A stretch of 64,000 nucleotides of DNA, from the sequence record OZ035789.1; one strand, given 5' to 3'. The position numbers and the translations under genes are program-made. The notes under the pieces were generated by a model that worked only from the letters and a program-made list of their open reading frames with translations, was not told the origin of the DNA and did not search any database. This DNA is from Tequatrovirus BCH953P4. This document shows positions 33,329-56,626 of this stretch, in pieces (within the stretch, counting starts at the first letter, position 1; each line of letters starts with the position of its first letter).

Positions 33329-34171
33329 TTAATCAACTGCTATTGGATGAATAGCATTAAACTTATGAAATGCTTCTGATTTTTCTTTACGCGAAACGCA
33401 CATGCGAAGAACCTTTAGTGGTTCATCTTCTTCACCCAACGATTTTCGTTTTTCAATATTAGAAGTTTTCCAACGAGCTTGCTCTGGAAACTCTCTATTG
33501 ATTTGCTCAAGCGCTCTATTATGTTTAGAATTACTACGAATTGAACTGCACCCGCCAGGAGCTTGTGCTTTTCCAGATACAACCAGATATTTGAACAAGG
33601 CCAAATGCGGATAACCTTGATTAATTAAATTGAGAAATGCATACATATCTTCGCATAAATCAATTTTTCCATATCCAATTTGTTCTGTCGTAAGTTTTCC
33701 AAGGTCATACCATGTATTCGTGAATCCATATGAATTTTCACGATAATTACCCCAAGATGAAGTAATTTTAAAAATTGGTAGACGAGCATGGCCATGATAA
33801 TACCCGCAATCCATGGCATCTTCAACATATTGAATCAATTCATAGAACTGTTCACGAGTTAATTGATTAATTTTATCTACACAACGACGATCATCTCTTT
33901 TTCGCATTGAACTCATACGAATAGTAGTATCATCGTCAATCATCCAGATTCGTTGACCTGCATACATATCAGTAATTGCTTTACGAGTACCGGCAATTCC
34001 GTTTACATCATCAGGAATAGTTATAATTTTAGCTCTAGACCCATAGGCATCATAATAAGCTTTTTCTTCATGTTCACGCACTACAATATGGGGTTCATAA
34101 TCAGTCGGAAACATATCAAGGGCAGAAACTGCCCCGACACGCTGATAGCTCGGAATTACGAATTGAATCAT
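33329..34171 (-). CDS. Putative DNA glycosyltransferase at the beta-gt locus (280 aa)
   Basis: ORF track; sits where T4 has beta-gt but is unlike T4 beta-gt; DDD motif; I suspect the T2/T6-type beta-glucosyl-HMC alpha-glucosyltransferase but cannot confirm. Confidence 0.5.
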   Translation of the reverse strand: MIQFVIPSYQRVGAVSALDMFPTDYEPHIVVREHEEKAYYDAYGSRAKIITIPDDVNGIAGTRKAITDMYAGQRIWMIDDDTTIRMSSMRKRDDRRCVDKINQLTREQFYELIQYVEDAMDCGYYHGHARLPIFKITSSWGNYRENSYGFTNTWYDLGKLTTEQIGYGKIDLCEDMYAFLNLINQGYPHLALFKYLVVSGKAQAPGGCSSIRSNSKHNRALEQINREFPEQARWKTSNIEKRKSLGEEDEPLKVLRMCVSRKEKSEAFHKFNAIHPIAVD

Positions 34172-34809
34172 TTAAGTGCCTTACATTTATCAAAATGGTA
34201 TCTTGTCATATTTGGCCCACGTCCTTTTAGTCCGCAATGCGGACATATTTTTTCTATCAAATTATGAGGTTTTCCTTTACGATTTTTAGACATCGTTTCT
34301 TTAATTATTTTAGCTTTTTCTACGCCAAAAATTTCTTCATAAGTTTTACCAGAATTTTCCTTGGCTCGATTTATAATTCCATATGCCTGCTCATTTTTAC
34401 CATACATTGGATTACCTTCGCCTTTCATTCTTTTAGAATGATCAGGACGCTTGATTCCACGAAAGGCATTTCCGCACTTATATCTTTCTTCTGGAGATAG
34501 TTTTTTACCGTACATTCCATTTAATTTGCCTGGAAAACTTCCTCCCCATGCTTCATTCTTTAAATTATATGAATCCGGACAATTAGCAGCATCTAAACAA
34601 GTTAAAATAATTTCTTCAACCTGTCTAAACATTGGTCCTTCATATAATATTTCTTTATTAAAGGATTTTATTCCATATTTCTTTTTAACATGTTGCCAAA
34701 CTACACCCGAACCATCATAATTCGGGTTGTGACCATCATGACTTCCTATATACCACTTTTTAGTTTTAGGATGTTTATACTTATAAACATGCGGCACATT
34801 TACTTCCAT
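34168..34809 (-). CDS. GIY-YIG homing endonuclease (213 aa) with C-terminal zinc finger
   Basis: ORF track; VYKYK...KWYIGSHDG motif; NUMOD-like repeats; CPHCGLKGRGPNMTRYHFDKC. Confidence 0.7.
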   Translation of the reverse strand: MEVNVPHVYKYKHPKTKKWYIGSHDGHNPNYDGSGVVWQHVKKKYGIKSFNKEILYEGPMFRQVEEIILTCLDAANCPDSYNLKNEAWGGSFPGKLNGMYGKKLSPEERYKCGNAFRGIKRPDHSKRMKGEGNPMYGKNEQAYGIINRAKENSGKTYEEIFGVEKAKIIKETMSKNRKGKPHNLIEKICPHCGLKGRGPNMTRYHFDKCKALK

Positions 34810-35540
34810 TTTCCAGTATAATCCTTTTTAGCAATATGAGTCTCACCGGTGTTCCACCAATGGTCAACTAAATAAAACTGATTTTCGTACACATGAAGAC
34901 TTCCAACGTTCCATATAATAGAACCTGCTTTATATTGCCGCGATGGGTCGCCTGCATTCAAATCAGATACTAATTTATCTAGTACGTATTTTTGCCAAGC
35001 ATAATCATTACGATAGCCTGCCCAGCAATCATTGCTTCTCATGCTAACAACCGCATTGACTTTCTTATCACGAATCAGGTACTGTACTGTATTAGTACAC
35101 ATGAAATCTGACATACCATCTTTATTGTAATCAAATTGCATGGATGGACGAGTATAAATCATGATACCACGTCGAGAATCAGGATTTTGACCAAGTTCAG
35201 CTAAACACATATCATACTGGGCATAGTTATCTTCTGACCAAATAGCCCAACCATAATTCGAGTTAATTTCGCCTTTAGAAGATGCTACTTGTTGCCAAAT
35301 CTTCGGTGTTTCACCCGGAATATCTTTAACAAACAAACTCTTAGATTTATACCATTCAAGTTCACGCTGAATGTATTCATCATTAAGAGCGCCAAAAATA
35401 AACGGTTCATCTGCTACAAATGATGCGCCAATAATTTCAATAGTTTTAACACCAGTTTTATCAACTACGAAATCTTTTTCCTTTAATGCAGTTCCCAAAT
35501 AAAAACGGATTTCTTCAACTGTCATAGAGTCATTAATCAT
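34800..35540 (-). CDS. 42: dCMP hydroxymethylase gp42 (246 aa)
   Basis: ORF track; T4 gp42 length and sequence. Confidence 0.92.
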   Translation of the reverse strand: MINDSMTVEEIRFYLGTALKEKDFVVDKTGVKTIEIIGASFVADEPFIFGALNDEYIQRELEWYKSKSLFVKDIPGETPKIWQQVASSKGEINSNYGWAIWSEDNYAQYDMCLAELGQNPDSRRGIMIYTRPSMQFDYNKDGMSDFMCTNTVQYLIRDKKVNAVVSMRSNDCWAGYRNDYAWQKYVLDKLVSDLNAGDPSRQYKAGSIIWNVGSLHVYENQFYLVDHWWNTGETHIAKKDYTGKWK

Positions 35541-35547
35541 TTAAACC

Positions 35548-35697
35548 TCAATTGATGCATTCATATTTAAATTGTAACAGTAATAAACCCCACCCTATGA
35601 TAAGAGTTGGAATCATAGCAGGAACTGTTACGCTATAGTATATACTTATTATAACCATCAAGATTAAAAGCAACACTGCTATAATTTTGCTTTTCAT
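35548..35697 (-). CDS. Small membrane peptide (49 aa)
   Basis: Hand translation MKSKIIAVLLLILMVIISIYYSVTV...; ATGA overlap with imm stop. Confidence 0.3.
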   Translation of the reverse strand: MKSKIIAVLLLILMVIISIYYSVTVPAMIPTLIIGWGLLLLQFKYECIN

Positions 35698-35945
35698 TCT
35701 TTCTCTCTGATGATAATTACCTGATTTGGCTGTGCAGACTTTTTAGTTTCACCAGCAATTGACCAAATAAATGTAATAAACCAACCAATAATTGACCAGT
35801 TAAACAGTAAAGATGTGAAAAAGATTCCTACTGTCGATTTTGACCCACGCATCAAGGCGATAAACCATGGAAGCATGTATATAATAATAGCCAACACGCC
35901 TGAAACTAAAACCATAAAAATTGAACCTGCTACTAAAGTTTCCAT
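35694..35945 (-). CDS. imm: Superinfection immunity protein Imm (83 aa)
   Basis: ORF track; two TM segments; T4 Imm length and sequence. Confidence 0.85.
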   Translation of the reverse strand: METLVAGSIFMVLVSGVLAIIIYMLPWFIALMRGSKSTVGIFFTSLLFNWSIIGWFITFIWSIAGETKKSAQPNQVIIIREKE

Positions 35946-35952
35946 GTTTTCC

Positions 35953-36333
35953 TCACTTAGTCAAATTTTTTACACATGAATTATAAGAATTCACTACATA
36001 CTCCATCGGAGCATTTTTACCAGTACGCCATTGGTAATTATTAGCCCAATTAGCCCAAATTTCGGCGCAGTAGTTTTCAATTTTTTCTTCGCGTGTAATT
36101 ACATCAGAATTACGATATGCTTGAGCAGATTCATCTGGACGAATAGCTTCGTCAAAATTCGCCTGCATTTGTTCTACTGTTTGCTTTGGAGCTTCTTTAT
36201 AACACTTGACATTAGGATTATAAAATTTGCTTGAACAGTTTACAATTTTTCCTGCATCAGACTGATTTACTACCGGTCCTTGAGCTACACAACCAGTAAG
36301 ACCTAATGCAATAACCAAAATAGCGATTTTCAT
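35953..36333 (-). CDS. Putative lipoprotein, imm.1-like (126 aa from ATG at 36333)
   Basis: Signal peptide MKIAILVIALGLTGC; track start is TTG, trimmed to ATG with SD GGAG. Confidence 0.55.
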   Translation of the reverse strand: MKIAILVIALGLTGCVAQGPVVNQSDAGKIVNCSSKFYNPNVKCYKEAPKQTVEQMQANFDEAIRPDESAQAYRNSDVITREEKIENYCAEIWANWANNYQWRTGKNAPMEYVVNSYNSCVKNLTK

Positions 36334-36367
36334 TTCATTCTCCAAATCCGTATTAGTTGATAGTTGT

Positions 36368-36397
36368 ATAGTACCATGGAAGAACAGTCTTGTAAAC
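36368..36397 (-). promoter_or_regulatory. Early promoter upstream of imm.1/imm (-35 GTTTACA, 17 bp, -10 TGGTACTAT)
   Basis: Plus ATAGTA-CCA (36368-36376) and TGTAAA (36391-36396). Confidence 0.6.
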
Positions 36398-36485
36398 AGT
36401 TTTGTGAAAAATTTTTTAGGGAATTCTAAAGGTCCAGAATCATCTGTTTTTCATAAGTATAGATTTATATTACTTGTATGAAAAA

Positions 36486-36501
36486 GGGACCCGGAGGTCC
36501 C
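36486..36501 (-). terminator. Rho-independent terminator after gene 43
   Basis: GGGACC-CGGA-GGTCCC followed on the minus strand by TTTTT. Confidence 0.65.
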
Positions 36502-36514
36502 TAGATTTATTCTA

Positions 36515-39211
36515 TCAGCCAAACAGGAAGTCTAACGAAGCTTTTTCTTCATAGTCCATACCAGCCGATTCACACATACCCGCAAGCGGTTTAACAAACG
36601 ATTTTTGGAACAAAGTTGAGTAGTCAATCCAAGATAGTACATCAGAACGAATTTCTTTTGGAAGTTCTGTACCCGACGGCCAAGCAATGCACTTGTCGCC
36701 AAATGGATTTCCTTCACGTAATGGAAGAACCATTACCTTATTTCCATCCAAAATTGGAGCTACACCTAGACCGCTAACAGCTCGACGATAAGTTAGCACA
36801 CCACGAATATGGAACGGGCATTTAAATCCTGGCCAACCTTTATCATCATATTTCGCTATATCGTTCGCAGTTTTTACTTCAGCAATAACTTTATAGTCAA
36901 GTTGACGATATTCTTTCTCGAAGTTTTTGTAATATTCTTGGACAGACTCTTCACCTTCCTGAAGAATACGACGAATACTTTCTTCGAGAGCTTCTTGCAC
37001 TGCTTTTGGTGTTGAACTCTGCTGAGTTTCCATACCCATGATTTTTAGATGTGGTTCAGCAAATCGCTTATCTTCCATATCATAAACGTTCAGAGCATAA
37101 CGCTTTTTCGCTTTCCAAAATCCACCAACGCCCTTTGAACCAAGTGGAGGGCAAGAAATAGCTTCACGGTCCATATGCATCAGATGCTCGCGGTTATTCA
37201 TATAATCACATAACTCGCGATATGCAACATCAATCATAGGTTCCATCTTTTTCTTACCGAACTGATTCATGAATTCAACTAAATCGTTCTGCTCTTTGAA
37301 TCGGTCAAGACCTACTTTTTCAATAACTTTATCTACGCAAACATATACCGAATCAGTATCACCTGCTGCAATGAAATCTTCGCCATTAGTTCCGCATACT
37401 TTATTCAGATATTCATTAATTTTACGAGCAATCCACTGAATACCAACTTGGCCGAAAATTGTGATAGCAGTAGCATTTCGCAAATCATAGTAACGGAAAT
37501 GAATATTACCAAGAGCACCATAAAGACTGTTAATAAGAATTTTACGGTTCAGCTGATTTGTGTTAGCAAGTGTAGCTGCTTTTTCACATTCTTCGATCAG
37601 ACTATTAAGAACAGATTCAGTGTAATTCGATAATTCATTTAAGAAATCATCACTGAACTTAACATATCGTTCAACTTCTGGTTTAGTTGAACAAGACCCT
37701 GCGCCTTTCATAATAATCTTTTTAATAGCTTCGGCATTCATTTCTTCAGCGAACATTTTCTTTTTCCAGTCTTTACGCTGGAAAAATACTTTAGCGATTT
37801 CCTTTGGAATGATACCTTCTTGATGCTTATCATACATCCATCCATTCGGAGAACAAGAATATTCATCACTCGGTTTAGGAGCTGTTCCTGCAATATATTC
37901 ATGAATTGGATGAACTTTAAACTGCCCACGAATAGTCTCAGGACTAATGTTAACCTGACGAATAATGCTAGGATACAGAGACGTCAAGTCAAAACTCATA
38001 ATATATCGACGAGCAATTGGTTTAGGTTCAAACACAAATGCACCCGGAAAACTTTGTTTAACGTGCGAACCCTGTTGAGGAATAACCTTATGTTCACCTT
38101 TCAATGAGTTAAAAATAATAGCATCCCAAGTTTTAATAGGACTCATTACGCCAGAAAAAGGCATTTTAGCATAATAAGACATACTTAAAACTAGATCGAT
38201 AAACCCGCGAATTTTATCAATTGCTTGAACTGATTCTACGTCAATGATGTTATAACTAATGTATCGTTGATGATTAGTTTCACGAAGTTTATTAATAGGA
38301 CCGTCGTATGGTAATTTACCTTTTTTGGTTTCATGTTGAGCAACTGATTCCAAAGAGAATGACGGCAAATTAGTAAAAGCGAATTTCTTGTACAAATCTA
38401 AATAATCAAGAATAGATACACCATCAATAGAATAAATTTCTTTGCTACCGTACATATTTTGAATTAGTTTAGATTTTACTCGACCGATTGGAGAGAAGCG
38501 TTTCATACTACGTTCACCGAGAACCATTTTAACACGATTCATGATATACGGAACGTCAAATCCCTCAATATTCCAACCAGTAAAAATAGCAGGTCGTTTC
38601 TGTTCCCAAAGATTGATATATTCCATGAGCATATCACGCTCGTTATCGAATGGCATATAAATTACTCGGTCAAGAATTTCTTGAGGAACTTCATCACCAC
38701 CTTCACAGTCAAGCTTAGCAGCTAACTTTGCATCCCATTTTGATACTGAACCGTACATTGAATTCAAAAGGTCGAAAACATAAAAACGATCGTCAATTGA
38801 ATCGTAATGAGTGATAGCATCAATTTCATATTCAGCTTTCATTGGGTCAGGAAATTTATCACCAGTAACCTCAATGTCACAGTTAGCTACGCGAACAAAT
38901 TTTCGGTCATAAACAATTTCTGAACCATATGTATCACTAATGTAAGCGAGTTTAAAATCGTTCATACCGAGAGCTTCGAGACCGATGTCTTCCATTCGCT
39001 TCATCCAGTCTCGTGCATCTTTCATTGATGGAAATTTTTGAGGAGCGCAATTTTTACCATAGATGTCTTTGTACTTTGACTCTTCCTTACAATGCCTAAA
39101 CATAGTCGGAAGATATTCTACTTCACGGGTACGTTCCTTTCCGTTTTCATCAATATAACGTTCAACAATGTTATTTCCGACTGTTTCGATAGAGATATAA
39201 AATTCTTTCAT
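36515..39211 (-). CDS. 43: DNA polymerase gp43 (898 aa)
   Basis: ORF track; family B exonuclease and polymerase motifs; T4 gp43 length. Confidence 0.95.
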   Translation of the reverse strand: MKEFYISIETVGNNIVERYIDENGKERTREVEYLPTMFRHCKEESKYKDIYGKNCAPQKFPSMKDARDWMKRMEDIGLEALGMNDFKLAYISDTYGSEIVYDRKFVRVANCDIEVTGDKFPDPMKAEYEIDAITHYDSIDDRFYVFDLLNSMYGSVSKWDAKLAAKLDCEGGDEVPQEILDRVIYMPFDNERDMLMEYINLWEQKRPAIFTGWNIEGFDVPYIMNRVKMVLGERSMKRFSPIGRVKSKLIQNMYGSKEIYSIDGVSILDYLDLYKKFAFTNLPSFSLESVAQHETKKGKLPYDGPINKLRETNHQRYISYNIIDVESVQAIDKIRGFIDLVLSMSYYAKMPFSGVMSPIKTWDAIIFNSLKGEHKVIPQQGSHVKQSFPGAFVFEPKPIARRYIMSFDLTSLYPSIIRQVNISPETIRGQFKVHPIHEYIAGTAPKPSDEYSCSPNGWMYDKHQEGIIPKEIAKVFFQRKDWKKKMFAEEMNAEAIKKIIMKGAGSCSTKPEVERYVKFSDDFLNELSNYTESVLNSLIEECEKAATLANTNQLNRKILINSLYGALGNIHFRYYDLRNATAITIFGQVGIQWIARKINEYLNKVCGTNGEDFIAAGDTDSVYVCVDKVIEKVGLDRFKEQNDLVEFMNQFGKKKMEPMIDVAYRELCDYMNNREHLMHMDREAISCPPLGSKGVGGFWKAKKRYALNVYDMEDKRFAEPHLKIMGMETQQSSTPKAVQEALEESIRRILQEGEESVQEYYKNFEKEYRQLDYKVIAEVKTANDIAKYDDKGWPGFKCPFHIRGVLTYRRAVSGLGVAPILDGNKVMVLPLREGNPFGDKCIAWPSGTELPKEIRSDVLSWIDYSTLFQKSFVKPLAGMCESAGMDYEEKASLDFLFG

Positions 39212-39269
39212 AGATATTCCTTAGTTTATAGCCCGAGTTATTAGGCTCTTGATATATTATACTCCAAAT

Positions 39270-39287
39270 AAGGGGCCGAAGCCCCTT
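39270..39287 (-). other. Intercistronic stem-loop between regA and 43
   Basis: AGGGGC-CGAA-GCCCCT. Confidence 0.4.
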
Positions 39288-39289
39288 GC

Positions 39290-39658
39290 TTAATTACCAA
39301 TCGTATATTTAGGAACGAGTTTCCATTCATGTTTTTGTTTAAAAGAAATAACTCGGAAGTTATTAGTTAAATCTTTCATAAAAGTTCTTTGACCAGGGAC
39401 GATTTCAATCAGTCCCCAATCTTCTAATAGCCATGCAATCGAATCACGACGAACTTCATCTTCTTCTGTCATTTCAACTTGGCGACCATCCATACGAAGC
39501 ATTTCTTTAAAATGAACGATATAGTATAGTCCTTTTTTCTGAAGAATATGACAGGACTGATACAGAACTTTATCTTTATTATTAGCAATTCCCATACGAG
39601 TCAAAGTTTCTTTTACTTTCAGAAAATCTTCAGGTTTTTTAAGAGTAATTTCAATCAT
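39290..39658 (-). CDS. regA: Translational repressor RegA (122 aa)
   Basis: ORF track; T4 RegA length; position. Confidence 0.85.
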   Translation of the reverse strand: MIEITLKKPEDFLKVKETLTRMGIANNKDKVLYQSCHILQKKGLYYIVHFKEMLRMDGRQVEMTEEDEVRRDSIAWLLEDWGLIEIVPGQRTFMKDLTNNFRVISFKQKHEWKLVPKYTIGN

Positions 39659-39659
39659 T

Positions 39660-40223
39660 TTACCATTCCAATGCTAGTTTTTTGAGTTGTTTCTGTTCTT
39701 TTACGTTCTTAGTCACTTCTTTCAAAAAATCATCCGTGACTAATCCTTTTAGTTCTTTTAATACTAAAGGTAGTTTTCCATTTTTAGTAAGAATTGATTT
39801 ATAGTTAATTGCATCATTTGTATTAACTTGATACCGCTTAGCAAGTAACTTAATAATCAATACTTCGGTGGAATCTTCAACCAGTTTTGCCCATTTACCA
39901 TATCTTTTACCACGAGGAACTGCAGCCATTAGATAATTAAAATGAGCTTCATCACTTAAACCTGATCCAATTAAATTCATAGCATATACAGCTGGCATGC
40001 ACTCCGGAAATTGTGATAATGCATTTTCAACCATGAATTTTGAATAATCTTTTTGAGCAATAGAGCATTTAGTTTTATTATTAATAGCTCCAATTATTTC
40101 AAAAAATTCATTTTCAGCTTTTTCTTTAAAAGAATCAGCAGCAGATTGGACAGCTGTCCAATCTTTTGAATACCAAGCAACTTGATGCTCGTTTAATTGA
40201 ATATCATCTTCAAATAAGCTCAT
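39660..40223 (-). CDS. 62: Clamp loader small subunit gp62 (187 aa from ATG at 40223)
   Basis: Sequence [20 protein letters not shown]...; track N-terminal extension rejected. Confidence 0.85.
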
Positions 40224-40224
40224 A

Positions 40225-41184
40225 TCACTTCCACTGCATTTCACATGCTAATTGAATGAAAAGATAAGCTAAATGTAATTCAGTGTTAGCTGCAATTCCA
40301 TGATACTGATTATTTTCACCAACAATTTCGTACATACGAATAATACTTTGCGGAGTTACACGTGAATAGATTTCTTCGGCAAGTTTACCCACAAACCACG
40401 AATAATCAGCCGCATATTTTGGTGCTAAAGCTCTGAGTTGTTTAACATCTTTATTTTTGAGAGACTCAAGAACATCATCAATAGCACCACGATCGTTAGT
40501 AACCAGTGATAAAATACCAGCATCCAAAACACCTTTAGATGAATAACTATCGAGCTCGCCAATAGTTTTACGAAAATCAGGAAAATTCTTTTTAACCAAA
40601 GCTGCTACAACTTTCATATCAGCTATAGCAATTCCTTCATGCTTGCAGATTTCAGTCAATCGACGAATCATCTGCTTCATCATTTCAATTTTATCTTCAT
40701 CGGTCGGTTGACCGAATGTAATAACTCGGCAGCGTGACTGAAGCGGTTTAATAATACCATCAATATTGTTAGCAGTAATAATAATACTACAGTTTGAACT
40801 ATAAGCTTCCATAAAGGAACGAAGATGTCGCTGAGATTCTGCTAAACCTGAACGGTCAAATTCATCAATAACAATTACCTTTTGACGACCATCAAATGAA
40901 GCTGCACTCGCAAAATTAGTTAAAGGACCACGAACGAAATCAATTTTACAATCTGATCCATTCACAAACATCATATCAGCATTTACATCATGACACAATG
41001 CTTTTGCTACAGTTGTTTTACCTGTTCCTGGAGAAGGAGAATGAAGAATAATATGTGGAATCTTACCTTTACTTGTAATAGATTTAAAGGTTTCTTTATC
41101 AAAGGCGGGAAGAATACATTCATCGATAGTAGATGGACGATATTTCTGTTCAAGAATGTGTTCTTTTTCATTTACGGTAATCAT
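40225..41184 (-). CDS. 44: Clamp loader ATPase gp44 (319 aa from ATG at 41184)
   Basis: Walker A GTGKTT; sequence [17 protein letters not shown]... Confidence 0.9.
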
Positions 41185-41216
41185 AATTTCCTCATTCAAG
41201 TTTTAGTGTAAATTAT

Positions 41217-41234
41217 AAAGGGCCGAAGCCCTTT
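41217..41234 (-). other. Intercistronic stem-loop between 45 and 44
   Basis: AAAGGGC-CGAA-GCCCTTT. Confidence 0.4.
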
Positions 41235-41235
41235 A

Positions 41236-41922
41236 TTAAAAATCGTGGGTAGAATCAGCTTCAAGAGCTACCACATAATTCGCGTGTTCACCTTCAAATT
41301 TAGCAGCACCTTGTTTACCTTTTGCCCAGAGCAGAAGTTTATAATTTCCTGGTTGCATTTTCATATTTGCCATATTGATAATGAAATTAAATGTATTTTC
41401 ACCATCATAATCACCAAGAGTCAAAGAATATTTAACACGGGTCAGAGCAGAATCTTCTACTTTATTAAAACCGTTAATTACGATTTTACCTTCTTTTACT
41501 GTGATAGCAATTGTATCAATCTGCAGACCGCGAGATACACGCAACAGCTGTTGAAGGTCTTCAGCTTTAATTTCGGTAACAACAGATGCTACCGGGAATG
41601 GAATTGGTTTATTAGGAGCAACTACTGTACTCGGATCGGCTGCTGGCCAAAAAATTGTTGAGCGAGCATCAGCAATTTTAATATTTCCATCTTCTGATTG
41701 CGAAATTTCTGCATCATCATTAACTAGAGACAGAATACCGAGAAAACCGTTCAAATCGTAAATTGCTACATCAAAATCAATAACGTCAGAAATATTTGCT
41801 TCCGCATAAGTTGTACCATTAACTGCGCGAGTCATAATAAATTGACCGGATTTAAGCATAATACCGGAGTTAATAGTAGCGAAATTTTTCAAAATATTCA
41901 GTGTGTCTTTAGATAATTTCAT
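41236..41922 (-). CDS. 45: Sliding clamp gp45 (228 aa)
   Basis: ORF track; T4 gp45 length and sequence. Confidence 0.9.
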   Translation of the reverse strand: MKLSKDTLNILKNFATINSGIMLKSGQFIMTRAVNGTTYAEANISDVIDFDVAIYDLNGFLGILSLVNDDAEISQSEDGNIKIADARSTIFWPAADPSTVVAPNKPIPFPVASVVTEIKAEDLQQLLRVSRGLQIDTIAITVKEGKIVINGFNKVEDSALTRVKYSLTLGDYDGENTFNFIINMANMKMQPGNYKLLLWAKGKQGAAKFEGEHANYVVALEADSTHDF

Positions 41923-42806
41923 TTCAATTTCCTATTTACATAATAGTTAGACCAGGACCGTACAGCACCCTGATAAGATTCGTCGTTAAACCCATTAGCT
42001 ACTGCAATTTTACGAAATTTATTATAACTCGGTTTTCCGTAAGCATGCCATAAAGATTTTAATTCATCTTCATGTTCAATCCAAGTTCCTCTAGCTTTAG
42101 ATTTTCTAAATTTTGATTTGAATTCCGGTGAATTATTTCTAACAGTTGCTTGAATTGAAGCCCTCTGTCTTCTTTCAGCATTATTCCATAACTCTTTTTG
42201 AGATTTAGAAATTTTTGATTTTACACTTTCTGAATTCATTATATCACTAAACTTTTTAGCATAACTACAATCAAGATATTTCAATTTCATCTTATTTGAA
42301 AGTTTAAGCTTTTTCTCATCGGTCCAGTGATTCTTCATTGAATTAGATATTTTGTATTTTACGTCAGAACTATGTTTGTAACCTTTACGAATACCAACAT
42401 AATCGGGCGTAATTTCAGATTGCGAAAGCTTTACAATTTTTCCAGTTAAAACATTTTTATATGTTCCATATCCTTTAGCGCCAATTAAAGTATTTTCATC
42501 TGCGTATGCTTTATTAAAATATTTTATATTACTTTTTGCTTTAACTTTTAATTGAAAAAATCTTTCCAATTTTCTTGGATCTAATATAGTTTCAGCTAAA
42601 ATTTTGACGGTATATTTAGTGGTTTTAATAAGCTCAAAATATTCATCGCTATAACTCGATGACACGCTTCCAGTATAAATCTTTCCAGCTGAATCAATTA
42701 TATTTGTTCCATCGAAAATTGCGTCAATTTTCGAACCTATATAATAACATGGAAAAATATTTTTAGCTTCCCGCTCTGGAAAGCTAATAAGATATACTAA
42801 ATTCAT
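41919..42806 (-). CDS. GIY-YIG-like (Seg-type) homing endonuclease candidate (295 aa)
   Basis: ORF track; LVYLISF...CYYIGSK motif; basic repeat-rich C-terminus; 4-nt overlaps with rpbA and 45. Confidence 0.55.
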
Positions 42807-43192
42807 TTATTAAAATCAGCTGCGATTGTTTCGGCAACAATTTGAGCAGCAACAATCAGACGTTCATCTGCATTGCCGCAATATTCATCTTCAAGGCGTT
42901 CACCACATGAAGTCATAATAAATTTAGCACCGGCGTTTAGGGATTCTGTAGTATGTTTGCGCATTAGTTCAATCCATTTATTACTTACTTCACGATCGAT
43001 AGCTTCATAATACGCATGACGAGCAGGTGCAGATTTAATTTTGTTCTGAATAACTTCCATTGCGTTATCAGAAAGAGACAAAACCCATGCTCGACGAATT
43101 TTATTTTGGTTTTGTGGATTTGATTCAGAACGCACGTGTTTTGGCTGAATATCTTTTACATCAACAGTATAATTCACAGTAATTTTAGTCAT
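42803..43192 (-). CDS. rpbA: RNA polymerase-binding protein RpbA (129 aa)
   Basis: ORF track; length and sequence T4 RpbA-like. Confidence 0.7.
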
Positions 43193-43201
43193 AATACACC
43201 T

Positions 43202-43393
43202 TTAGTCATAATAATCAGTGACAGTCCAAGCTTCATTTCTATTGGACATTATTTTTGTATATTCTGCTTTAAATGCATTCCTAAGCATAGATTCAGTAAC
43301 TATATGCTCTTCATTAGAAAAATTATTTCTCAGAATATATCGTTTTATTTCAGGAATAGTTAATAGATGCTGTCCGGTTGAATATTCTGCCAC
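43202..43393 (-). CDS. Hypothetical small protein (63 aa; GTG start with SD GGAGG)
   Basis: ORF track. Confidence 0.4.
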   Translation of the reverse strand: MAEYSTGQHLLTIPEIKRYILRNNFSNEEHIVTESMLRNAFKAEYTKIMSNRNEAWTVTDYYD

Positions 43394-43403
43394 AATTCCT
43401 CCG

Positions 43404-43411
43404 TATAAATA
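43404..43411 (+). promoter_or_regulatory. Late promoter TATAAATA upstream of the plus-strand HNH endonuclease gene
   Basis: Exact TATAAATA 34 nt upstream of ATG 43445. Confidence 0.6.
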
Positions 43412-43444
43412 TGTTTATCACTCGCTGTATCAAAAGGATATGTT

Positions 43445-44161
43445 ATGAATTATAAACTAATTTATGAAAAGTTAATCTCTAATGCTAAATCTCGAAAACT
43501 TGATTGCTATACTGAATCTCATCACATTATACCACGCTGTTTAAATGGCAGCGATGATGCTTCAAACTTAGTAGATTTAACACCAGAAGAGCACTATGTA
43601 GCTCATCAACTTTTAGTAAAAATTTATCCTTCTGAACCAAAATTAGTATATGCTGCTAACATGATGACAGTTTCCACGAAATACGCTAAACGCAACAATA
43701 AAACTTTCGGTTGGATTCGTCGTAAACTCTGGGAAATAGAAAAGAACAAAGAATTCTCCCAGGAGACACGAAAGAAAATGTCTGATGCAGTAGCTAATAA
43801 AGCAAGACTAACTTGTCCTCATTGCGGTAAGTCTGGATTAAGCGGGAATATGAATCGTTGGCATTTTGATAACTGCCCAAATCACCCTAATCCTAAAGTT
43901 AGACCACCAATGTCTAAAGAACACAGAAATAATATCTCAAACGGGCTTAAAGCAATCGTTCTTGAAGAAACATCTTGCGAATTCTGCGGAATGATAGGCA
44001 AGAAATGCGTTATCGCAGCGCATAGAAATTTCTGCAAGAAAAATCCAAATGGACGCAAGAAAACTGAAAAGACTGGTACTTGCGTCCATTGTGGTAAAGT
44101 TACCACTTTCGGAAATTTATCAAGATGGCATAATGATAACTGTAAATATAAACCTAGCTAA
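43445..44161 (+). CDS. HNH homing endonuclease with three zinc-finger repeats (238 aa)
   Basis: ORF track; HHIIPRC...N...H HNH motif; repeats CPHCGKSG...RWHFDNC; opposite strand to all neighbours. Confidence 0.8.
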   Translation: MNYKLIYEKLISNAKSRKLDCYTESHHIIPRCLNGSDDASNLVDLTPEEHYVAHQLLVKIYPSEPKLVYAANMMTVSTKYAKRNNKTFGWIRRKLWEIEKNKEFSQETRKKMSDAVANKARLTCPHCGKSGLSGNMNRWHFDNCPNHPNPKVRPPMSKEHRNNISNGLKAIVLEETSCEFCGMIGKKCVIAAHRNFCKKNPNGRKKTEKTGTCVHCGKVTTFGNLSRWHNDNCKYKPS

Positions 44162-45842
44162 TCTTAGCTAAACTAAATCTACCAACTTTTTCCATCTGAA
44201 TATGCTGACCATATTCTTGTGGGTCATGGTCTTTATGCGAAATTATGAAGAAGTTGGTATCCTTCAAACCATCTAAAATTTTAGCTACATTTTTAATACC
44301 TTCAGCATCAAATGCACCGTCATACACTTCATCAAGAAATAAACAACTTATTTTAACACCTGAAACTTTTTCAGCAATATCACGCCAAGTAAATAAAAGA
44401 GCAATATCAATTCGTGCTTTTTCACCTTGACTGAATGAAGCATAACTAAAATCTTCACGACCACGGGATTTAATTGTCTCATTAAATTCTTCATCTAATG
44501 TAAACACATAATCCGCTTCCATTATTTTAAGATAATGGTTAATCTGCTTATTAAATAATGGAATGTACTTTTTAATAATAGCACCTTTAATACCAGAATC
44601 TTTGAGCATATCAGTCAAAATTCCTCGGTGGTATTTTTCCATTACTAAATTAGTTTTTGTCTTAACAATTTTATCAAGTTCTTCTTGAAGCAGTGCTATT
44701 TCATCAGCATGGTCAATAAACTCAGAAGATGCTTTTTCTATAGCCGCTTTAACCTTTTTAGCTTTATCTACTGCTGCGATCAAAGATTGCTTTTTATTGC
44801 GAATATCATTTGCCAACGACTGTTGGGTTTTAATATTATCTCGGTATTCATCAACAAGAACTTTTAAATTATCACGATGTGTTGAAAGCTGTTCAAACGA
44901 ATGCGTACATTCAGAAACTTTATCTTTAATTTTAGAAACAACTTTATCACCGGAACTCAATTGTGACAAACAGGTTGGACATAATCCACCTTCGTGATAC
45001 ATATTAATGACTTTATTATACGAGTCAATTTTTGATTTAATTAAAAATGCTTCTTGACCGATTTTATTAAATGCATCAGTTGGGTCTTCGTCTAAAACAA
45101 TATTAACTAATCTTTCATTAGCTTCTTCTATTTCCGATTTTAGCGTTCTAGCTTCTTTTGCCAAATCATCATACATATTTTGCAGACGAGTAAGGTTGTC
45201 ACCCGTTAATTTTTTCTGGCGTTCAACGTTATCATTATATATTTTAATTTGTTGGATAATACTATCTTTTTTAACATCAAGCACTTGGTTCTGCGAATTT
45301 AATTCGCGTATTAGTGCTTTATTAAGCTTATCCATTTCAGCTAATGTTCCTACCTCAAGCAGGTCTTCCACAAGCTTTCTTCGCGCAGGGGTCGACAAAC
45401 CCATGAAAGGGGTATACCCTGCTGTACCAAGGACAACAATCTGCTTGAAACTGGCATATGACATTCCGATAAGCTGTTCAAATTCTGCTTGGAAATCTTT
45501 ACTGCTGGCAGATTCATTAAGACGTGTACCGTTAACGGTGATTTCGAAAACGTTTGGTTTTTGTCCTCTTTTGATATAGTACTTTTTCTCATCATATTCC
45601 ATCCACAGTTCAACTAAAAGTTCTTTCTTATTTGTGCTGTTTATTAATTGACCTTTCTTTACATCACGAAATGGCTTGCCAAAAAGCCCAAACGTGATGG
45701 CTTCTAGCATAGTAGACTTACCACCGCCATTTCGTCCAGTAATAAGAGTTTTTTGAACCTTATCTAATTGAATGTCAATCCCATTTTGACCAACTGACAT
45801 TATATTTTTATATTTTACTCTATTAAGTTTAAAATTCTTCAC
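44154..45842 (-). CDS. 46: Recombination endonuclease subunit gp46 (562 aa), SbcC/Rad50-like
   Basis: ORF track; Walker A GRNGGGKST and long coiled coil. Confidence 0.88.
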   Translation of the reverse strand: MKNFKLNRVKYKNIMSVGQNGIDIQLDKVQKTLITGRNGGGKSTMLEAITFGLFGKPFRDVKKGQLINSTNKKELLVELWMEYDEKKYYIKRGQKPNVFEITVNGTRLNESASSKDFQAEFEQLIGMSYASFKQIVVLGTAGYTPFMGLSTPARRKLVEDLLEVGTLAEMDKLNKALIRELNSQNQVLDVKKDSIIQQIKIYNDNVERQKKLTGDNLTRLQNMYDDLAKEARTLKSEIEEANERLVNIVLDEDPTDAFNKIGQEAFLIKSKIDSYNKVINMYHEGGLCPTCLSQLSSGDKVVSKIKDKVSECTHSFEQLSTHRDNLKVLVDEYRDNIKTQQSLANDIRNKKQSLIAAVDKAKKVKAAIEKASSEFIDHADEIALLQEELDKIVKTKTNLVMEKYHRGILTDMLKDSGIKGAIIKKYIPLFNKQINHYLKIMEADYVFTLDEEFNETIKSRGREDFSYASFSQGEKARIDIALLFTWRDIAEKVSGVKISCLFLDEVYDGAFDAEGIKNVAKILDGLKDTNFFIISHKDHDPQEYGQHIQMEKVGRFSLAKIS

Positions 45843-48742: not shown

Positions 48743-49537
48743 CTACGAATAGGCCCAAACATATCCATAAGCAATTTTGCTTTTTCCAGATATACACTTT
48801 TTAATATTAGACATGCATCCTTTAACGGATACAGCTGCGTCTTTAATTTTAGGAAATACTCGTAATAATTTTCCAGTAGTATCATATTGAAATACTGGCA
48901 CATTTCTTTTCTGAGTTATCCCACGTTTAGATTTAGACATTTTTTGTTTAGTTGCATTAGACATCCTAGAGGGCTTTCCTATGTTATCAGAATAATAATA
49001 TTTCCATTGAAATCCTCCAGCGGTTTTCCTTTTCCCATCTACACATTGTTTAATTGAACTTGAACAGCTATATGACATATCTTCTGCAGCATCTGTAATA
49101 CATCTATATTTGCGAATAAAATTTCCATTTAAATCATATTGATAAATTGGTTTTCCAGCATTTCGTCTAGCGTTAGACATGTATTTTTTATTATCATCAT
49201 CTTTCCAGAACTCTTTCATGCCTTCCGATATTGAGGAAGATACAGCTGTTTTAATCCATCCATACATTTTATTATTTAGTCTTGTTCCGTCAGAACTATA
49301 ACACATCATACGAATAGCTAAAGCCAATTTAGGAAGTCTATAAATTTTAAATAATAATAAATGCGCGGTAAAATGTTCTTCTGGTGTCAAAAGAACTAAA
49401 TTAGTTTTATCATCTGTACCACCCATACATCTAGGAATTATATGATGAGTTTCAGTATAGTATGTCAAAAGACTTTTATCATTGCCTCTGTTTAGTCCTT
49501 TTTCGATCAGTAAATTATATATGTTTAAATAATTCAT
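48743..49537 (-). CDS. HNH homing endonuclease (264 aa), MobB-like position
   Basis: ORF track; HHIIPRC...N...H motif; NUMOD-like C-terminal repeats. Confidence 0.75.
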   Translation of the reverse strand: MNYLNIYNLLIEKGLNRGNDKSLLTYYTETHHIIPRCMGGTDDKTNLVLLTPEEHFTAHLLLFKIYRLPKLALAIRMMCYSSDGTRLNNKMYGWIKTAVSSSISEGMKEFWKDDDNKKYMSNARRNAGKPIYQYDLNGNFIRKYRCITDAAEDMSYSCSSSIKQCVDGKRKTAGGFQWKYYYSDNIGKPSRMSNATKQKMSKSKRGITQKRNVPVFQYDTTGKLLRVFPKIKDAAVSVKGCMSNIKKCISGKSKIAYGYVWAYS

Positions 49538-53296: not shown

Positions 53297-53767
53297 TTAA
53301 TCATGTTTCCACACCCCATCGGTATTTGACCAAAGTCGCTGATTATCTGATCCTCGCCACAGCTTTTTGGTCGGAAGATTTTTCTCATACTTCCCATCAA
53401 TAATAACATCAACATATTTAAGCATTTCTAGTTGTTTAATATCTTCAAACTTATATCCTGTCCACAACCAAATGCTTTTATTGGGATAAAGATTTTTAAT
53501 AGTTTGAACCACAGAGTGAATCACGTCTCTGTTATCAGGATAAAGAGGGTCACCTCCGGTTATAGTCAATCCTTCTATATAATCATTATTCAAACATTCA
53601 ATTAATTGTTCTAGTGTTTCACCAGTGAATGGAACACCATTTCTAGCATTCCATGTTGATTTATTATAACACCCTTCGCATTTATGCAAACAACCTGTAA
53701 CGAAAAGAACGACCCTGCATCCAGGGCCATTCACAAAATCACAGGGATAAAATCTATCGTAATTCAT
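53297..53767 (-). CDS. nrdG: Anaerobic ribonucleotide reductase activase NrdG (156 aa)
   Basis: ORF track; radical-SAM CxxxCxxC cluster motif. Confidence 0.88.
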   Translation of the reverse strand: MNYDRFYPCDFVNGPGCRVVLFVTGCLHKCEGCYNKSTWNARNGVPFTGETLEQLIECLNNDYIEGLTITGGDPLYPDNRDVIHSVVQTIKNLYPNKSIWLWTGYKFEDIKQLEMLKYVDVIIDGKYEKNLPTKKLWRGSDNQRLWSNTDGVWKHD

Positions 53768-55037
53768 TGGTGTTTAACCCTATGCATGATTTCTTTGTTT
53801 TTACCGAGATTAAATCCGCGTTCGTTCGGGTTTCCAAGATATCCGCATGTTCTTCTTATGGTATTCATCTTTTTAGGATCAGTTTCTCCACAAATAGAAC
53901 AAACAAATCCGTTTTCAGTAGGAGTCATTTCATGGGTACTTCCGCATGTAAAACATTTATCTACCGGCATGTTAACACCAAAATAATCTAAATGTTGTGC
54001 AGCATAATCCCATACGGCCTCAAGGCCTTTTAAGTTATTTTTCATATCAGGAAGTTCAACATAAGAAATGTGACCACCTGTCGCAATGAAATGATATGGC
54101 GCTTCACGAGAAATCTTTTCAAACGGAGTAATATTTTCTTCTACTGAAACATGGAAACTGTTAGTGTACCAGCCTTTATCGGTAACATCTTTTACACTTC
54201 CATATTTTTCTGTATCAAGTTTACAGAAGCGATAACAAAGGTTTTCAGCAGGAGTCGAATATAAACTAAAAGCAAATCCAGTTCTTTCAGTCCACTGTTT
54301 AAGATGAGCATTCATCTTAGTTAAAATTTCTTGTCCAATATCACGACCGACAAGAATATTCAATTCGTGAATACCAATGTATCCTAGGGACACTGAACTT
54401 CTACCGTTTTTAAATAACTCAATTATGTCGTCATCAGGTTTAAGACGAACCCCGAATGCACCTTCTTGGTAAAGAATAGGAGCAACAGTAGCTTTAACTC
54501 CTTTTAAGGAACTAATTCTACACATCAAAGCTTCAAAACATAAATCCATTCGTTCATTAAATAGCTCAACAAATTTCTGTTCATTGAACTGTGTTCCAAT
54601 ATAAGAATCTAACGCAATGCGAGGAAGATTCAGTGTTACAACACCAAGATTATTACGTCCATCAAGAATTTCATTACCAGTTGAATCTTTCCATACGCTC
54701 AAGAAACTACGGCAACCCATTGGAGAAACAGGAACAGATGAACCAGTGATAGCTTTATTGTTTTTAGCTGAAATAATATCAGGATACATCCTTTTGCTTG
54801 CACACTCTAGAGCAAGCTGCTTAATATCATAGTTCGGATCGTCTTTATAAAGATTAACACCTTCTTCGACGAACATAACAAGCTTAGGAAAAATAGGAGT
54901 TATCCCATCACGACCGAGACCTTTAATACGATTTTTCAGAATTGCTTTCTGAATCATTCGTTCAGTCCAGTCAGTTCCCGTACCAAATGTAATTGTTACA
55001 AAAGGTGTTTGTCCGTTAGAGCTGAAAAGTGTATTTA
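53764..55037 (-). CDS. nrdD: Anaerobic ribonucleotide reductase NrdD, exon 2 (3' splice junction approximate)
   Basis: Track ORF 53764-55095 trimmed at an inferred splice site after G 55038; C-terminal glycyl-radical and Cys-rich region. Confidence 0.6.
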
Positions 55038-55069
55038 CTTCATCATTATATTCAGCATGAGTCGCAAAT

Positions 55070-55840
55070 TCATGCCCGTTTATATGAAACAACAAAATTT
55101 GGATAGTCCATAGATATGCAACGTTCTTTTATAGTGCTAGGATGAAAATTTAGCGCTTTAGCTGCTTCTATATAAGACGTATACTTAATACCGTCAACAA
55201 CCACATATTCAGGAACTTTATGAATAGTAGTCTTAATACTCAAAACAAGAGGATGAGTTTCGACTTCACTTTCAGTGCAATTTAAATATTCCGCTGCTTT
55301 TTTAAAACTTCTAAAAGTTTTATTTTTAAGCTTTATCGATACTTGTTTTTTACTTTTTCGACTATTGATATTATTTTGCACATGTTCCTTAGATCTTCCG
55401 TTTTTAGCATAATATTCAGCTACAGAAGATTTTATATTGTTTTTATGAGATTCGGATAACACTTTACCCTTATGAGCATCTCTTAATTTTTGAATATGTT
55501 CTTCAGTATCCGGATGCTTATAAAACTTTTTACCGCCTATGGATTTATTTAAACATTTTTTGCTATAAAAATATTTACGTATGACCTCTTCTTCATGTTT
55601 TAATGCATCTTTATAACTATCAAATGTTTTTAAAATTATCCATTTAGTAGGTGTATCAGTTTTTAAGCGTTCATTTATATACTTAGATGACGTTGTGTAA
55701 GTTTTCCAGTTTGTGGGCTTGTTTTTAATTGTTCTAAATTTTTTATAACCGATATAAATGTCGCCATTAGAAAACTTAACTAAGTATGTAAATGCGTCTT
55801 TATCTTTTATTTTAGTACAACGTCTTTTTATCCATTTCAT
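55070..55840 (-). CDS. Intron-encoded GIY-YIG homing endonuclease, I-TevII-like (256 aa)
   Basis: ORF track; AFTYLVKF...DIYIGY motif; located in the 3' part of the intron. Confidence 0.8.
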   Translation of the reverse strand: MKWIKRRCTKIKDKDAFTYLVKFSNGDIYIGYKKFRTIKNKPTNWKTYTTSSKYINERLKTDTPTKWIILKTFDSYKDALKHEEEVIRKYFYSKKCLNKSIGGKKFYKHPDTEEHIQKLRDAHKGKVLSESHKNNIKSSVAEYYAKNGRSKEHVQNNINSRKSKKQVSIKLKNKTFRSFKKAAEYLNCTESEVETHPLVLSIKTTIHKVPEYVVVDGIKYTSYIEAAKALNFHPSTIKERCISMDYPNFVVSYKRA

Positions 55841-55869
55841 TGTTTCACCTCGTATTCATAAGATAATCT

Positions 55870-55877
55870 TATTTATA
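55870..55877 (-). promoter_or_regulatory. Late promoter TATAAATA inside the intron, upstream of the endonuclease ORF
   Basis: Plus TATTTATA, about 30 nt upstream of ATG 55840. Confidence 0.6.
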
Positions 55878-56088
55878 CAAGATGACTGCTGCATGTCGCC
55901 ATGCAGATTAGACTATATCTTCATCTTTCGATGCCGGCCGTTTCGAATAGCATTAGCTTCTATTCTACACCGCTACATTCATCACGGTTAGTCGTTAGGC
56001 ATTTAGTTCAAAAGAACATTTAGCACGGGATTGTCTACTAGAGAGGTTCCCCGTTTAGACCGGTTTTACATGAGCCTGAATTAAATTA

Positions 56089-56626
56089 ACTCATACGCCT
56101 GAAACGCGTCGTATACATCTTTTTCTGTTTTAGATTGAGCATAATTCAACGCATCAGCGATTTGCCATTTTTCTGCATCCTCAATATGTTTTGCATAGGT
56201 GCGTTTAACATAAGGAGAAAGTACTTTATCTACATTAGCAAAAGTCGTTCCGCCATATTGGTGAGAAGCAACCTGTGCAGTAATTTGTGCCATAATTGCA
56301 GTAGCAACACCGATTGATTTAGGAGTTTCAATCTGTGCATTACCAAGCTTAAATCCGTTCTCAAGCATTCCTTTTAAATCTACTAAACAGCAATTAGTAA
56401 ATGGAAGAGCAGGGGAATAATCAATATCGTGGAAATGAATAATTCCGCTTTCATGCGCTTTCATAATAAAAGACGGGACCATATTTTTGGCAATGTGTTT
56501 AGACACAATACCAGCCATAAGGTCCCGTTGAGTTGGAAAAACACGAGAATCTTTGTTAGCATTCTCGTTTAAAAGGTCTTTATTAGTTTTATGAATCAAT
56601 CCTTCAATTTCTTTTTCAATTGTCAT
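56089..56626 (-). CDS. nrdD: Anaerobic ribonucleotide reductase NrdD, exon 1 (5' splice junction approximate)
   Basis: Track ORF 56081-56626; 5' splice site placed after the U of GAGU by analogy with T4. Confidence 0.6.

Follow-up and report, generated by a model that had tools for sequence, protein, structure and literature searches.

A putative C2HC zinc-finger module shared by a GIY-YIG and an HNH homing endonuclease of a T-even phage

Introduction

Zinc fingers at the C-terminal end of a phage homing endonuclease have been characterized in I-TevIII, an HNH enzyme encoded by the nrdB group I intron of phage RB3. According to Robbins et al. (2007, PMC1865063), it carries two CX2CX12-13HX3C fingers that bind one zinc each, as determined with the 4-(2-pyridylazo)resorcinol (PAR) assay and Cys mutants. 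Replacing Cys by Ala abolishes both the binding and the cleavage of DNA, and no sequence conservation with other endonucleases was reported outside the HNH motif (PMC1865063). Here, we analyzed a stretch of 64,000 nucleotides of Tequatrovirus BCH953P4 (OZ035789.1), hereafter called the window, in which a GIY-YIG homing endonuclease (gene at 34168..34809, minus strand) and an HNH homing endonuclease (gene at 43445..44161, plus strand) both carry C2HC fingers of this known type. A preliminary description of the window had proposed that these two catalytically unrelated enzymes share one zinc-finger module and that domain shuffling accounts for it.

The sharing of small DNA-binding modules among homing endonucleases is itself not new. 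The nuclease-associated modular DNA-binding domains (NUMODs), which Sitbon and Pietrokovski are said to have described in 2003, are reportedly common to GIY-YIG, HNH and LAGLIDADG enzymes. Like them, the finger treated here is a small, putatively DNA-binding module that occurs across catalytically unrelated homing endonucleases, but it is a predicted metal-binding beta-beta-alpha unit rather than a helix or helix-turn-helix, and it is without a Pfam or NCBIfam model.

Free-standing relatives of both enzymes are known from phage T4. T4 MobE is a free-standing HNH homing endonuclease encoded between nrdA and nrdB, and the paper on it makes no mention of zinc or of a zinc finger (Wilson & Edgell 2009, PMC2790892). 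The T4 Seg proteins are GIY-YIG enzymes with a free-standing cassette lifestyle and, as in I-TevI, modular DNA-binding domains at the C-terminus, and they share with I-TevI and with the window GIY-YIG enzyme the GIY-YIG domain, the I-TevI fold and a NUMOD3-like linker. I-TevI's zinc finger differs from the one described here in being a C4-type structural element. In our literature search, no explicit description of a C2HC finger on GIY-YIG enzymes was found; one paper notes in passing that a Seg-like protein of KVP40 is 'similar in part' to I-TevIII and nrdB.1.

A C2HC finger in two nuclease families

A six-frame regular-expression scan of the window for C-x2-C-x10-14-H-x3-C returned exactly four matches, one in the GIY-YIG open reading frame (ORF) and three in the HNH ORF; across 100 shuffles, shuffled windows held a mean of 0.12 matches each. 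All four finger peptides named in the preliminary description were recovered in these two ORFs, at the coordinates given there. The product of the GIY-YIG ORF ends in ...EKICPHCGLKGRGPNMTRYHFDKCKALK, and its finger, CPHCGLKGRGPNMTRYHFDKC (CX2CX12HX3C), is encoded at 34183..34245 on the minus strand. The fingers of the HNH protein, all on the plus strand, are finger 1, CPHCGKSGLSGNMNRWHFDNC (43814..43876, residues 124-144), finger 2, CEFCGMIGKKCVIAAHRNFC (43976..44035, residues 177-196), which has the divergent form CX2CX11HX3C, and finger 3, CVHCGKVTTFGNLSRWHNDNC (44081..44143, residues 212-232). The two proteins show the same architecture, in which an N-terminal nuclease domain (GIY-YIG or HNH) is followed by a helical NUMOD3-like linker and then by one or three C2HC fingers.

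BLASTP between the two proteins gave E=5e-9 across the NUMOD3-like linker and the finger, and E=5e-4 for finger 3. The GIY-YIG finger and HNH finger 1 are identical at 13 of 21 residues, and nine of these identities fall among the 17 non-ligand positions, so that the likeness reaches beyond CxxC spacing. In the alignment of fingers the four ligands C, C, H and C are invariant, one R is present in at least 90%, and R, N, M and F are nearly invariant; the signature P-H-G..G..N-M-x-R-[YW]-H-F-D-[NK]-C-K is conserved across thousands of proteins. Judged from these alignments, the module found in both proteins is homologous rather than alike in generic CxxC spacing, in agreement with the proposal of one module shared across the two families.

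To score single fingers, a profile was built without HNH finger 2. Finger 1 scored 57.2 bits and finger 3 49.8 bits, whereas finger 2 reached 8.7 bits in a partial match. The spacing is x12 in the GIY-YIG finger and in HNH fingers 1 and 3; the x11 spacing of finger 2 lies just outside the published range of x12-13. Finger 2 is conserved in the approximately 25 closest relatives. The view that the HNH protein carries three repeats of the same module therefore stands for fingers 1 and 3 but not in that form for finger 2, which is a divergent variant whose main support is the fold predicted for it and the fact that relatives conserve it.

We then compared the window fingers with those of I-TevIII and MobE, using a profile of window-related fingers from which both of these proteins were excluded. 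This profile recognized the RB3 I-TevIII fingers, CDFCGHIGKGPGFYLKHNDRC (finger 1) and CPYCDKKDLSPSTYKRWHGDNC, at 13.9 and 29.4 bits, and T4 MobE, whose C-terminal end is CPHCGKKVNKGNALRWHYDKC, at 37.3 bits, but it did not recognize the C4 finger of I-TevI (1.8 bits). The window fingers thus agree with the I-TevIII type in ligand pattern (except for the x11 of HNH finger 2) and in sequence homology beyond the ligands, as well as in their C-terminal position on a phage homing endonuclease. I-TevIII finger 1 resembles window HNH finger 2 and I-TevIII finger 2 resembles window HNH finger 3, and the I-TevIII remnant of T4 matches the HNH protein by BLASTP with E=1.4e-6. I-TevIII differs in being intron-encoded, in its HNH subtype EIHHKDGN (HNH_3-like) and in having two fingers, while the window enzymes are free-standing and carry three fingers on a MobE-type HNH enzyme and a single finger on a GIY-YIG enzyme; the latter combination is absent from the I-TevIII paper (PMC1865063). 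T4 MobE has an N-terminal HNH domain like the HNH protein and likewise occupies a free-standing cassette, beside a conserved gene that MobE targets, but it has one finger instead of three, and its locus is nrdA/nrdB instead of 45.2/46. In the T4 reference NC_000866 (139716-140416; L005 39716-40416), MobE is split into 'mobE' (141 amino acids) and 'nrdB.1' (83 amino acids, with the finger), and T4 strain GT7 has a single 232-residue read-through MobE at this position; either T4 stocks differ by a frameshift here or one of the records contains a sequence error.

The finger was absent from all seven T4 Seg proteins, from I-TevI and from I-TevII; where the window GIY-YIG enzyme has its finger, SegD and I-TevI have a different C-terminal tail. 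The finger was considered as a module of both nuclease types in T4 itself and this was ruled out, since it occurs in T4 only in I-TevIII and in the MobE/nrdB.1 tail, both of the HNH lineage.

Pfam and NCBIfam hold no dedicated model for the finger and gave scattered sub-threshold zinc-ribbon matches, and a sequence search of the PDB with both proteins returned no related solved structure. The window fingers matched the Pfam zf-C2H2 model (PF00096) only at E=8.4, below the gathering score, and so fall outside that family by this measure; one finger of the relative P0002 passes the gathering score (28.4 versus 25.2 bits).

AlphaFold2 models, built with homologue alignments, were confident, with a mean predicted local distance difference test (pLDDT) score of 87 (GIY-YIG protein) and 92.7 (HNH protein). 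All four fingers were predicted to form a hairpin of two strands and then a helix, with finger pLDDT of about 88-97: strands 185-187 and 194-196 and helix 198-207 in the GIY-YIG finger, and in the HNH protein strands 121-123 and 130-132 with helix 133-143 (finger 1), 175-177 and 184-186 with 187-199 (finger 2), and 210-212 and 219-221 with 222-232 (finger 3). The first two ligands sit on the hairpin, and the His and the last Cys on the helix. The predicted topology is that of a classical C2H2 zinc finger, with which the window finger also shares the C-x2-C-x12-H spacing and the occurrence in tandem arrays. It differs in having a Cys at x3 as the fourth ligand, a helix that is conserved rather than hypervariable, and an array period of about 33-40 instead of 28 residues. 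Foldseek gave weak but consistent matches to the Rad18 UBZ (C2HC) finger for the GIY-YIG model and to the arrays of CTCF, ZFAT, TFIIIA and Tramtrack for the HNH model. With invariant ligands and this predicted fold, the window fingers probably bind zinc.

Two unrelated enzymes in discrete cassettes

The gene at 34168..34809 (minus strand) encodes a Seg-like GIY-YIG protein of 213 amino acids, with a GIY-YIG domain, a NUMOD3-like helical linker and the single C-terminal finger. It matches PHROG 314, 'homing endonuclease', with E=8e-30, and its catalytic domain matches T4 SegA-E by BLASTP (E=1e-10 to 6e-5; 31-37% identity). The motifs HVYKY and KWYIGS are present, and Y8, Y19, G21 and N81 are invariant in 50 relatives. 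The top Foldseek match of the model is the I-TevI catalytic domain (1mk0, probability 1.0, template-modelling score TMt 0.66). No Pfam GIY-YIG model matched the protein at E<=1, and its relatives do carry PF19835 or PF01541; motifs and fold together place it among GIY-YIG catalytic domains.

The gene at 43445..44161 lies on the plus strand, opposite to its early and middle neighbour genes, and encodes a MobE-like protein of 238 amino acids with an HNH domain, a helical linker and the three fingers. It matches PHROG 655 (E=9e-69) and T4 MobB, MobC, MobD and MobE by BLASTP (E=1e-20 to 1e-28), with 35% identity to MobE over the full length. H26, H27, N41 and H50 are invariant in 60 relatives and correspond to the catalytic H26, H27, N39 and H48 of I-TevIII. 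The Pfam HNH model stayed below threshold (16.9 bits, cutoff 21.4), and the conserved His, Asn and His place the protein among those with the HNH (beta-beta-alpha-Me) motif. The families are thus catalytically unrelated, as had been proposed: an I-TevI fold with matches to SegA-E on one side, and the invariant H26/H27/N41/H50 with matches to MobB-E on the other.

The window comes from a T2/T6-like Tequatrovirus. The approximately 12 kb surrounding both finger genes are 96-98% identical to many Tequatrovirus (T-even) genomes, the glucosyltransferase is of the T2/T6 type (beta-glucosyl-HMC-alpha-glucosyltransferase), and the gene order is that of the T4 replication and recombination block, mostly on the minus strand: glucosyltransferase, gene 42, imm, 43, regA, 62, 44, 45, rpbA, 45.2, 46, 47, a-gt. 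Both finger genes are free-standing homing endonuclease genes that stand as discrete cassettes amid these conserved genes, and both proteins are already deposited at 99-100% identity in dozens of phage genomes.

Alignment to the empty allele of phage e11/2, in which gene 42 adjoins the glucosyltransferase gene directly, delimited a GIY-YIG cassette of 632 bp (34172..34803). It was carried by 76 of 501 matching phage records, a sporadic occurrence at a fixed site between conserved genes, as expected of a mobile gene. The 3′ end of gene 42 (dCMP hydroxymethylase; minus strand) is a divergent patch, with a binned identity to the empty allele of 77% at 34804..34903 versus 97-98% further out, and may be a target or co-conversion zone. 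In Klebsiella phage vB_KpnM_GF (MK421971.1; L009 1192-1302), a stand-alone ORF of 36 amino acids, MPHPHNLIKRSCPHCGKVGSGPNMTRYHFDKCKDKK, lies between gene 42 and the glucosyltransferase gene and looks like a finger-only remnant of a decayed GIY-YIG cassette. Gene 42 of this phage is apparently shortened (214 versus 246 amino acids), in a partial-genome record where a sequence error is possible.

Using blastn against the empty allele of phage ECML-134, we found that a 786-bp cassette (43388..44173), comprising a predicted promoter and the HNH gene, stands in place of a 72-bp spacer between genes 45.2 and 46. It was carried by 58 of 597 matching records, again a sporadic presence at one fixed position flanked by conserved genes. 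The 3′ part of gene 46 (minus strand) is 73-77% identical to the empty allele at 44234..44353 versus 100% beyond 44474, and this patch is likewise a candidate target or co-conversion zone. Both cassettes have exact junctions. The divergent patches beside them would fit target sites made immune in the host genome, or co-conversion tracts, and it is presumably in these genes that the two enzymes have their targets. The start of gene 45.2 is GTG plus one extra codon with the cassette (window 43388-43393) and ATG in the empty ECML-134 allele (L008 539-541); the insertion therefore rewrote the start codon of 45.2.

An exact match to the T4 late-promoter consensus, TATAAATA, lies at 43404..43411 on the plus strand, 34 nucleotides upstream of the HNH start, and is followed by an AGGA Shine-Dalgarno sequence (43435-43438, plus strand). 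From established knowledge of T4 late promoters we take this element to act as one, and late expression of the HNH gene would be expected. TATAAATA occurs 4 times in the window versus 10.8 expected. Two of the four copies lie about 30 nucleotides upstream of homing endonuclease starts: the one before the HNH gene, and another at 55870-55877 (minus strand) before the intron ORF that starts at 55840.

Distribution and shuffling of the finger

The pattern CP[HY]C..G.GPNMTRYHFD[KN]C forms the C-terminal end of most of the 70 GIY-YIG protein relatives, some of which carry a pair of fingers. One to three fingers were found in 118 of the best 120 of 2,304 relatives of the HNH protein. A word-indexed protein search with the three-finger segment gave 11 matches, the word index being too coarse, and we therefore searched 1.84 billion representatives without a word index, using a finger profile of 33 positions. 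At E<=1e-3 this retrieved 9,986 proteins, of which 1,337 passed E<=1e-10; the approximately 10,000 are 50% identity clusters. Pfam annotation of the top 143 finger proteins gave NUMOD3 in 39, GIY-YIG in 25, SegE_GIY-YIG in 19, HNH in 8 and HNH_3 in 7, and the finger usually stands after the NUMOD3 repeats. Local HMM (hidden Markov model) classification of 344 collected proteins placed 128 with GIY-YIG, 168 with HNH and 48 outside both, the last including finger-only proteins, fragments and apparent other GIY-YIG subtypes. Both finger subtypes, with Tyr (Y) or Trp (W) before the His, occurred with GIY-YIG (119 Y, 83 W) as well as with HNH (72 Y, 182 W). The last finger lay 12 or fewer residues from the C-terminus in 294 of 331 finger-bearing proteins.

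Arrays reached nine fingers, with a typical period of 33-40 residues. In the metagenomic proteins P0202, P0204, P0232 and P0337, a GIY-YIG or HNH domain is joined to 7-9 C2HC fingers in tandem, and one array subgroup has the helix signature ...Y.RWHGDNC, like that of I-TevIII finger 2. Finger-only proteins also exist, such as P0002 (123 amino acids, three fingers).

Two sets of proteins bear on how the finger came to be shared. Over the catalytic domain and linker, P0029, P0042, P0043, P0048 and P0054 share about 50-60% identity with the window GIY-YIG protein; they diverge exactly at the start of the finger, from where their tail aligns with the C-terminus of T4 SegD. This SegD-type tail would resemble the DNA-binding helix-turn-helix of I-TevI. 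BLASTP of the P0029 tail against I-TevI aligned the catalytic domain only, and it is the SegD alignment that supports the likeness of the tail. Conversely, the HNH proteins P0076, P0080 and P0072 carry a finger of the GIY type, and that of P0076 is identical to the window GIY-YIG finger at 19 of 21 residues. With a tail swap in GIY-YIG relatives and GIY-type fingers on HNH proteins, the alignments speak directly for domain shuffling between GIY-YIG and HNH scaffolds and support what had been suggested for the window.

A recent event is not what the nucleotides record. The coding segments of the GIY-YIG finger and HNH finger 1 are identical at 39 of 63 nucleotides (62%), and the longest exact word common to the two genes is 11 nucleotides, so the comparison suggested in the preliminary description for recently exchanged modules turned up none. 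The cassettes also assort independently, as fFiEco06 has the HNH gene without the GIY-YIG gene and C2-3 the reverse. Because of the 62% identity and the short shared word, the exchange of the finger is old and not recent in the window genome.

Proposed role of the finger

Overall, the observations are in our view probably best explained by an interchangeable, zinc-stabilised DNA-anchoring module that is shared across GIY-YIG and HNH phage homing endonucleases. By analogy with I-TevIII, the finger, stabilised by zinc, most likely anchors the far end of an elongated enzyme on DNA, and it would bind DNA and be required for target binding. In such a scheme, the finger would hold the enzyme on its target in the conserved gene next to the insertion site, in the genome of a co-infecting phage without the cassette, the tethered nuclease would cut nearby, and repair from the cassette-bearing genome would copy the gene into the cassette-less phage. 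Phage homing endonucleases are assembled from interchangeable parts, and this is probably why GIY-YIG and HNH enzymes share the finger, which has probably moved between the two scaffolds many times over a long period, not recently within the window genome.

Several observations weigh against the module as an anchor of this kind. HNH finger 2 is weakly related by sequence to the other fingers. Owing to the very small size of the domain, the Foldseek matches of the fingers have little statistical weight (E=0.025 to 3). The census of 344 proteins was gathered with the window proteins as queries, and its family proportions are biased accordingly. Further, the helix is the most conserved part of the finger, and the hairpin tip the variable part; the helix positions used for base reading in classical fingers hardly vary here (N, M, Y/W), and an Arg is almost invariant. 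The affinity for DNA that the finger confers may therefore be general and not sequence-specific. Because T-even DNA carries glucose in its major groove and I-TevIII footprints point to minor-groove contacts (PMC1865063), classical major-groove reading is unlikely as well, and, by analogy, we would expect a conserved backbone or minor-groove contact rather than a finger-by-finger code.

The same features raise the question of whether the finger, though homologous and zinc-binding, is structural or regulatory, that is, whether it organises the linker or sets a distance, works as a redox switch in the manner of I-TevI, or aids dimerisation, with specificity coming from the NUMOD3-like helices and the nuclease domain. 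The conservation of the would-be base-reading positions fits this idea, I-TevI's zinc finger is structural and not DNA-binding (PMC2988022), the dimerisation determinant of I-TevIII maps beside its fingers, and the lost DNA binding of the I-TevIII Cys mutants could reflect misfolding (PMC1865063). However, the minimal DNA-binding domain of I-TevIII includes the fingers and finger mutants lose binding (PMC1865063), the SegD-type tail that replaces the finger in close relatives suggests positional equivalence with a DNA anchor, and a linker function would hardly account for finger-only arrays with as many as nine copies; we therefore regard a purely structural or regulatory finger as unlikely. 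Quite unlikely, in our judgement, is also a more far-reaching reading of the same arrays, in which the finger would be a very large uncurated phage family of classical-type (beta-beta-alpha) fingers whose tandem arrays on GIY-YIG and HNH nucleases are natural counterparts of engineered zinc-finger nucleases, each finger perhaps being a separable, recombinable DNA-recognition unit.

Other alternatives concern the origin of the likeness rather than its function. Short Cys/His motifs are common, Pfam has no single family for the fingers but scattered sub-threshold zinc-ribbon matches, and finger 2 is weak by sequence, so one could suspect four unrelated zinc knuckles that converged on, or share by chance, the generic CxxC...H...C spacing. 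The identity of 9 of 17 non-ligand positions between the GIY-YIG finger and HNH finger 1, the BLASTP value of 5e-9, single-finger profile scores of 50-57 bits and the signature found in thousands of proteins make this very improbable, and they rule it out for three of the four fingers. It is hardly conceivable, either, that the finger-coding segment was recently copied between both genes in this phage by gene conversion or illegitimate recombination, even though two copies in one genome have 13 of 21 residues in common and T-even phages recombine at high frequency. The nucleotide identity (39/63, longest shared word 11 nucleotides) rules out such a recent exchange at the level tested, the two cassettes are found independently in different phages, and the finger of P0076, an HNH protein from elsewhere, is far closer to the GIY-YIG finger than the HNH fingers of the window are.

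Neither the finger type nor MobE-like enzymes are new, nor is the principle that homing endonucleases share modules, and modular shuffling of DNA-binding domains in particular has long been established, so that our results refine existing knowledge without changing it. The additions, the GIY-YIG-plus-finger architecture and the size of the family, are modest, and the interpretation is correct but unsurprising. The window offers a clean and checkable example of phage homing endonucleases that are assembled from swappable parts, with one finger on two unrelated scaffolds in one genome, and it extends I-TevIII, the one experimentally studied case, to GIY-YIG enzymes and to thousands of uncharacterised proteins. 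It also points to an annotation gap: because the finger is without a Pfam or NCBIfam model, proteins that carry it often appear as 'hypothetical' or under the misleading names 'RNA polymerase subunit RPC12/RpoP' and 'Zn-ribbon protein'. Source names of the P0011 and P0093 type are 'DNA-directed RNA polymerase subunit RPC12/RpoP' and 'RNA-binding Zn-ribbon protein involved in translation'; on finger-bearing homing endonucleases such names are probably misannotations that stem from the lack of a finger model.

Other homing endonuclease genes in the window

When 15 T4 homing endonuclease proteins were compared by BLASTP with all window ORFs of at least 60 amino acids, only five ORFs matched. PHROG, Pfam, BLASTP and Rfam bear out the earlier count of five homing endonuclease genes in the 64-kb window, and the three beyond the main pair are without a finger.

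The third gene (41919..42806, minus strand) encodes a Seg-like GIY-YIG protein of 295 amino acids that matches PHROG 655 and 7504 and lies between gene 45 and rpbA. Its N-terminal 100 residues are 39% identical to T4 SegG (E=6e-14), and its C-terminal two thirds have no Pfam match above threshold. The gene overlaps both neighbours, rpbA (at its end) with the start and gene 45 (at its start) with the stop; in T4 the site is a spacer of about 55 bp without a gene. The fourth gene (48743..49537, minus strand) encodes MobB, with an HNH domain (22.6 bits) and two NUMOD1 domains (Pfam, E=1e-24), and its product is 98.9% identical to T4 MobB.

The genes nrdG and nrdD are directly adjacent (53297-55095, minus strand). 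The mobC that separates them in T4 is absent, and the site is therefore an 'empty' allele for MobC.

The fifth gene (55070..55840, minus strand) is an I-TevII-like GIY-YIG ORF, with Pfam SegE_GIY-YIG and NUMOD1 domains, in the group I intron of nrdD. A scan of the whole window at Rfam gathering thresholds gave no matches; it missed Intron_gpI because speed filters lost the true match. An E-value scan of 54800-56300 (1.5 kb) recovered the intron core at 55889-56120 (minus strand) with 70 bits, above the gathering score of 50 bits. The intron ORF occupies the same position in the intron as I-TevII, of which it is a strongly diverged allele, its product being 56% identical to T4 I-TevII versus more than 90% for the flanking genes with T4-like phages.

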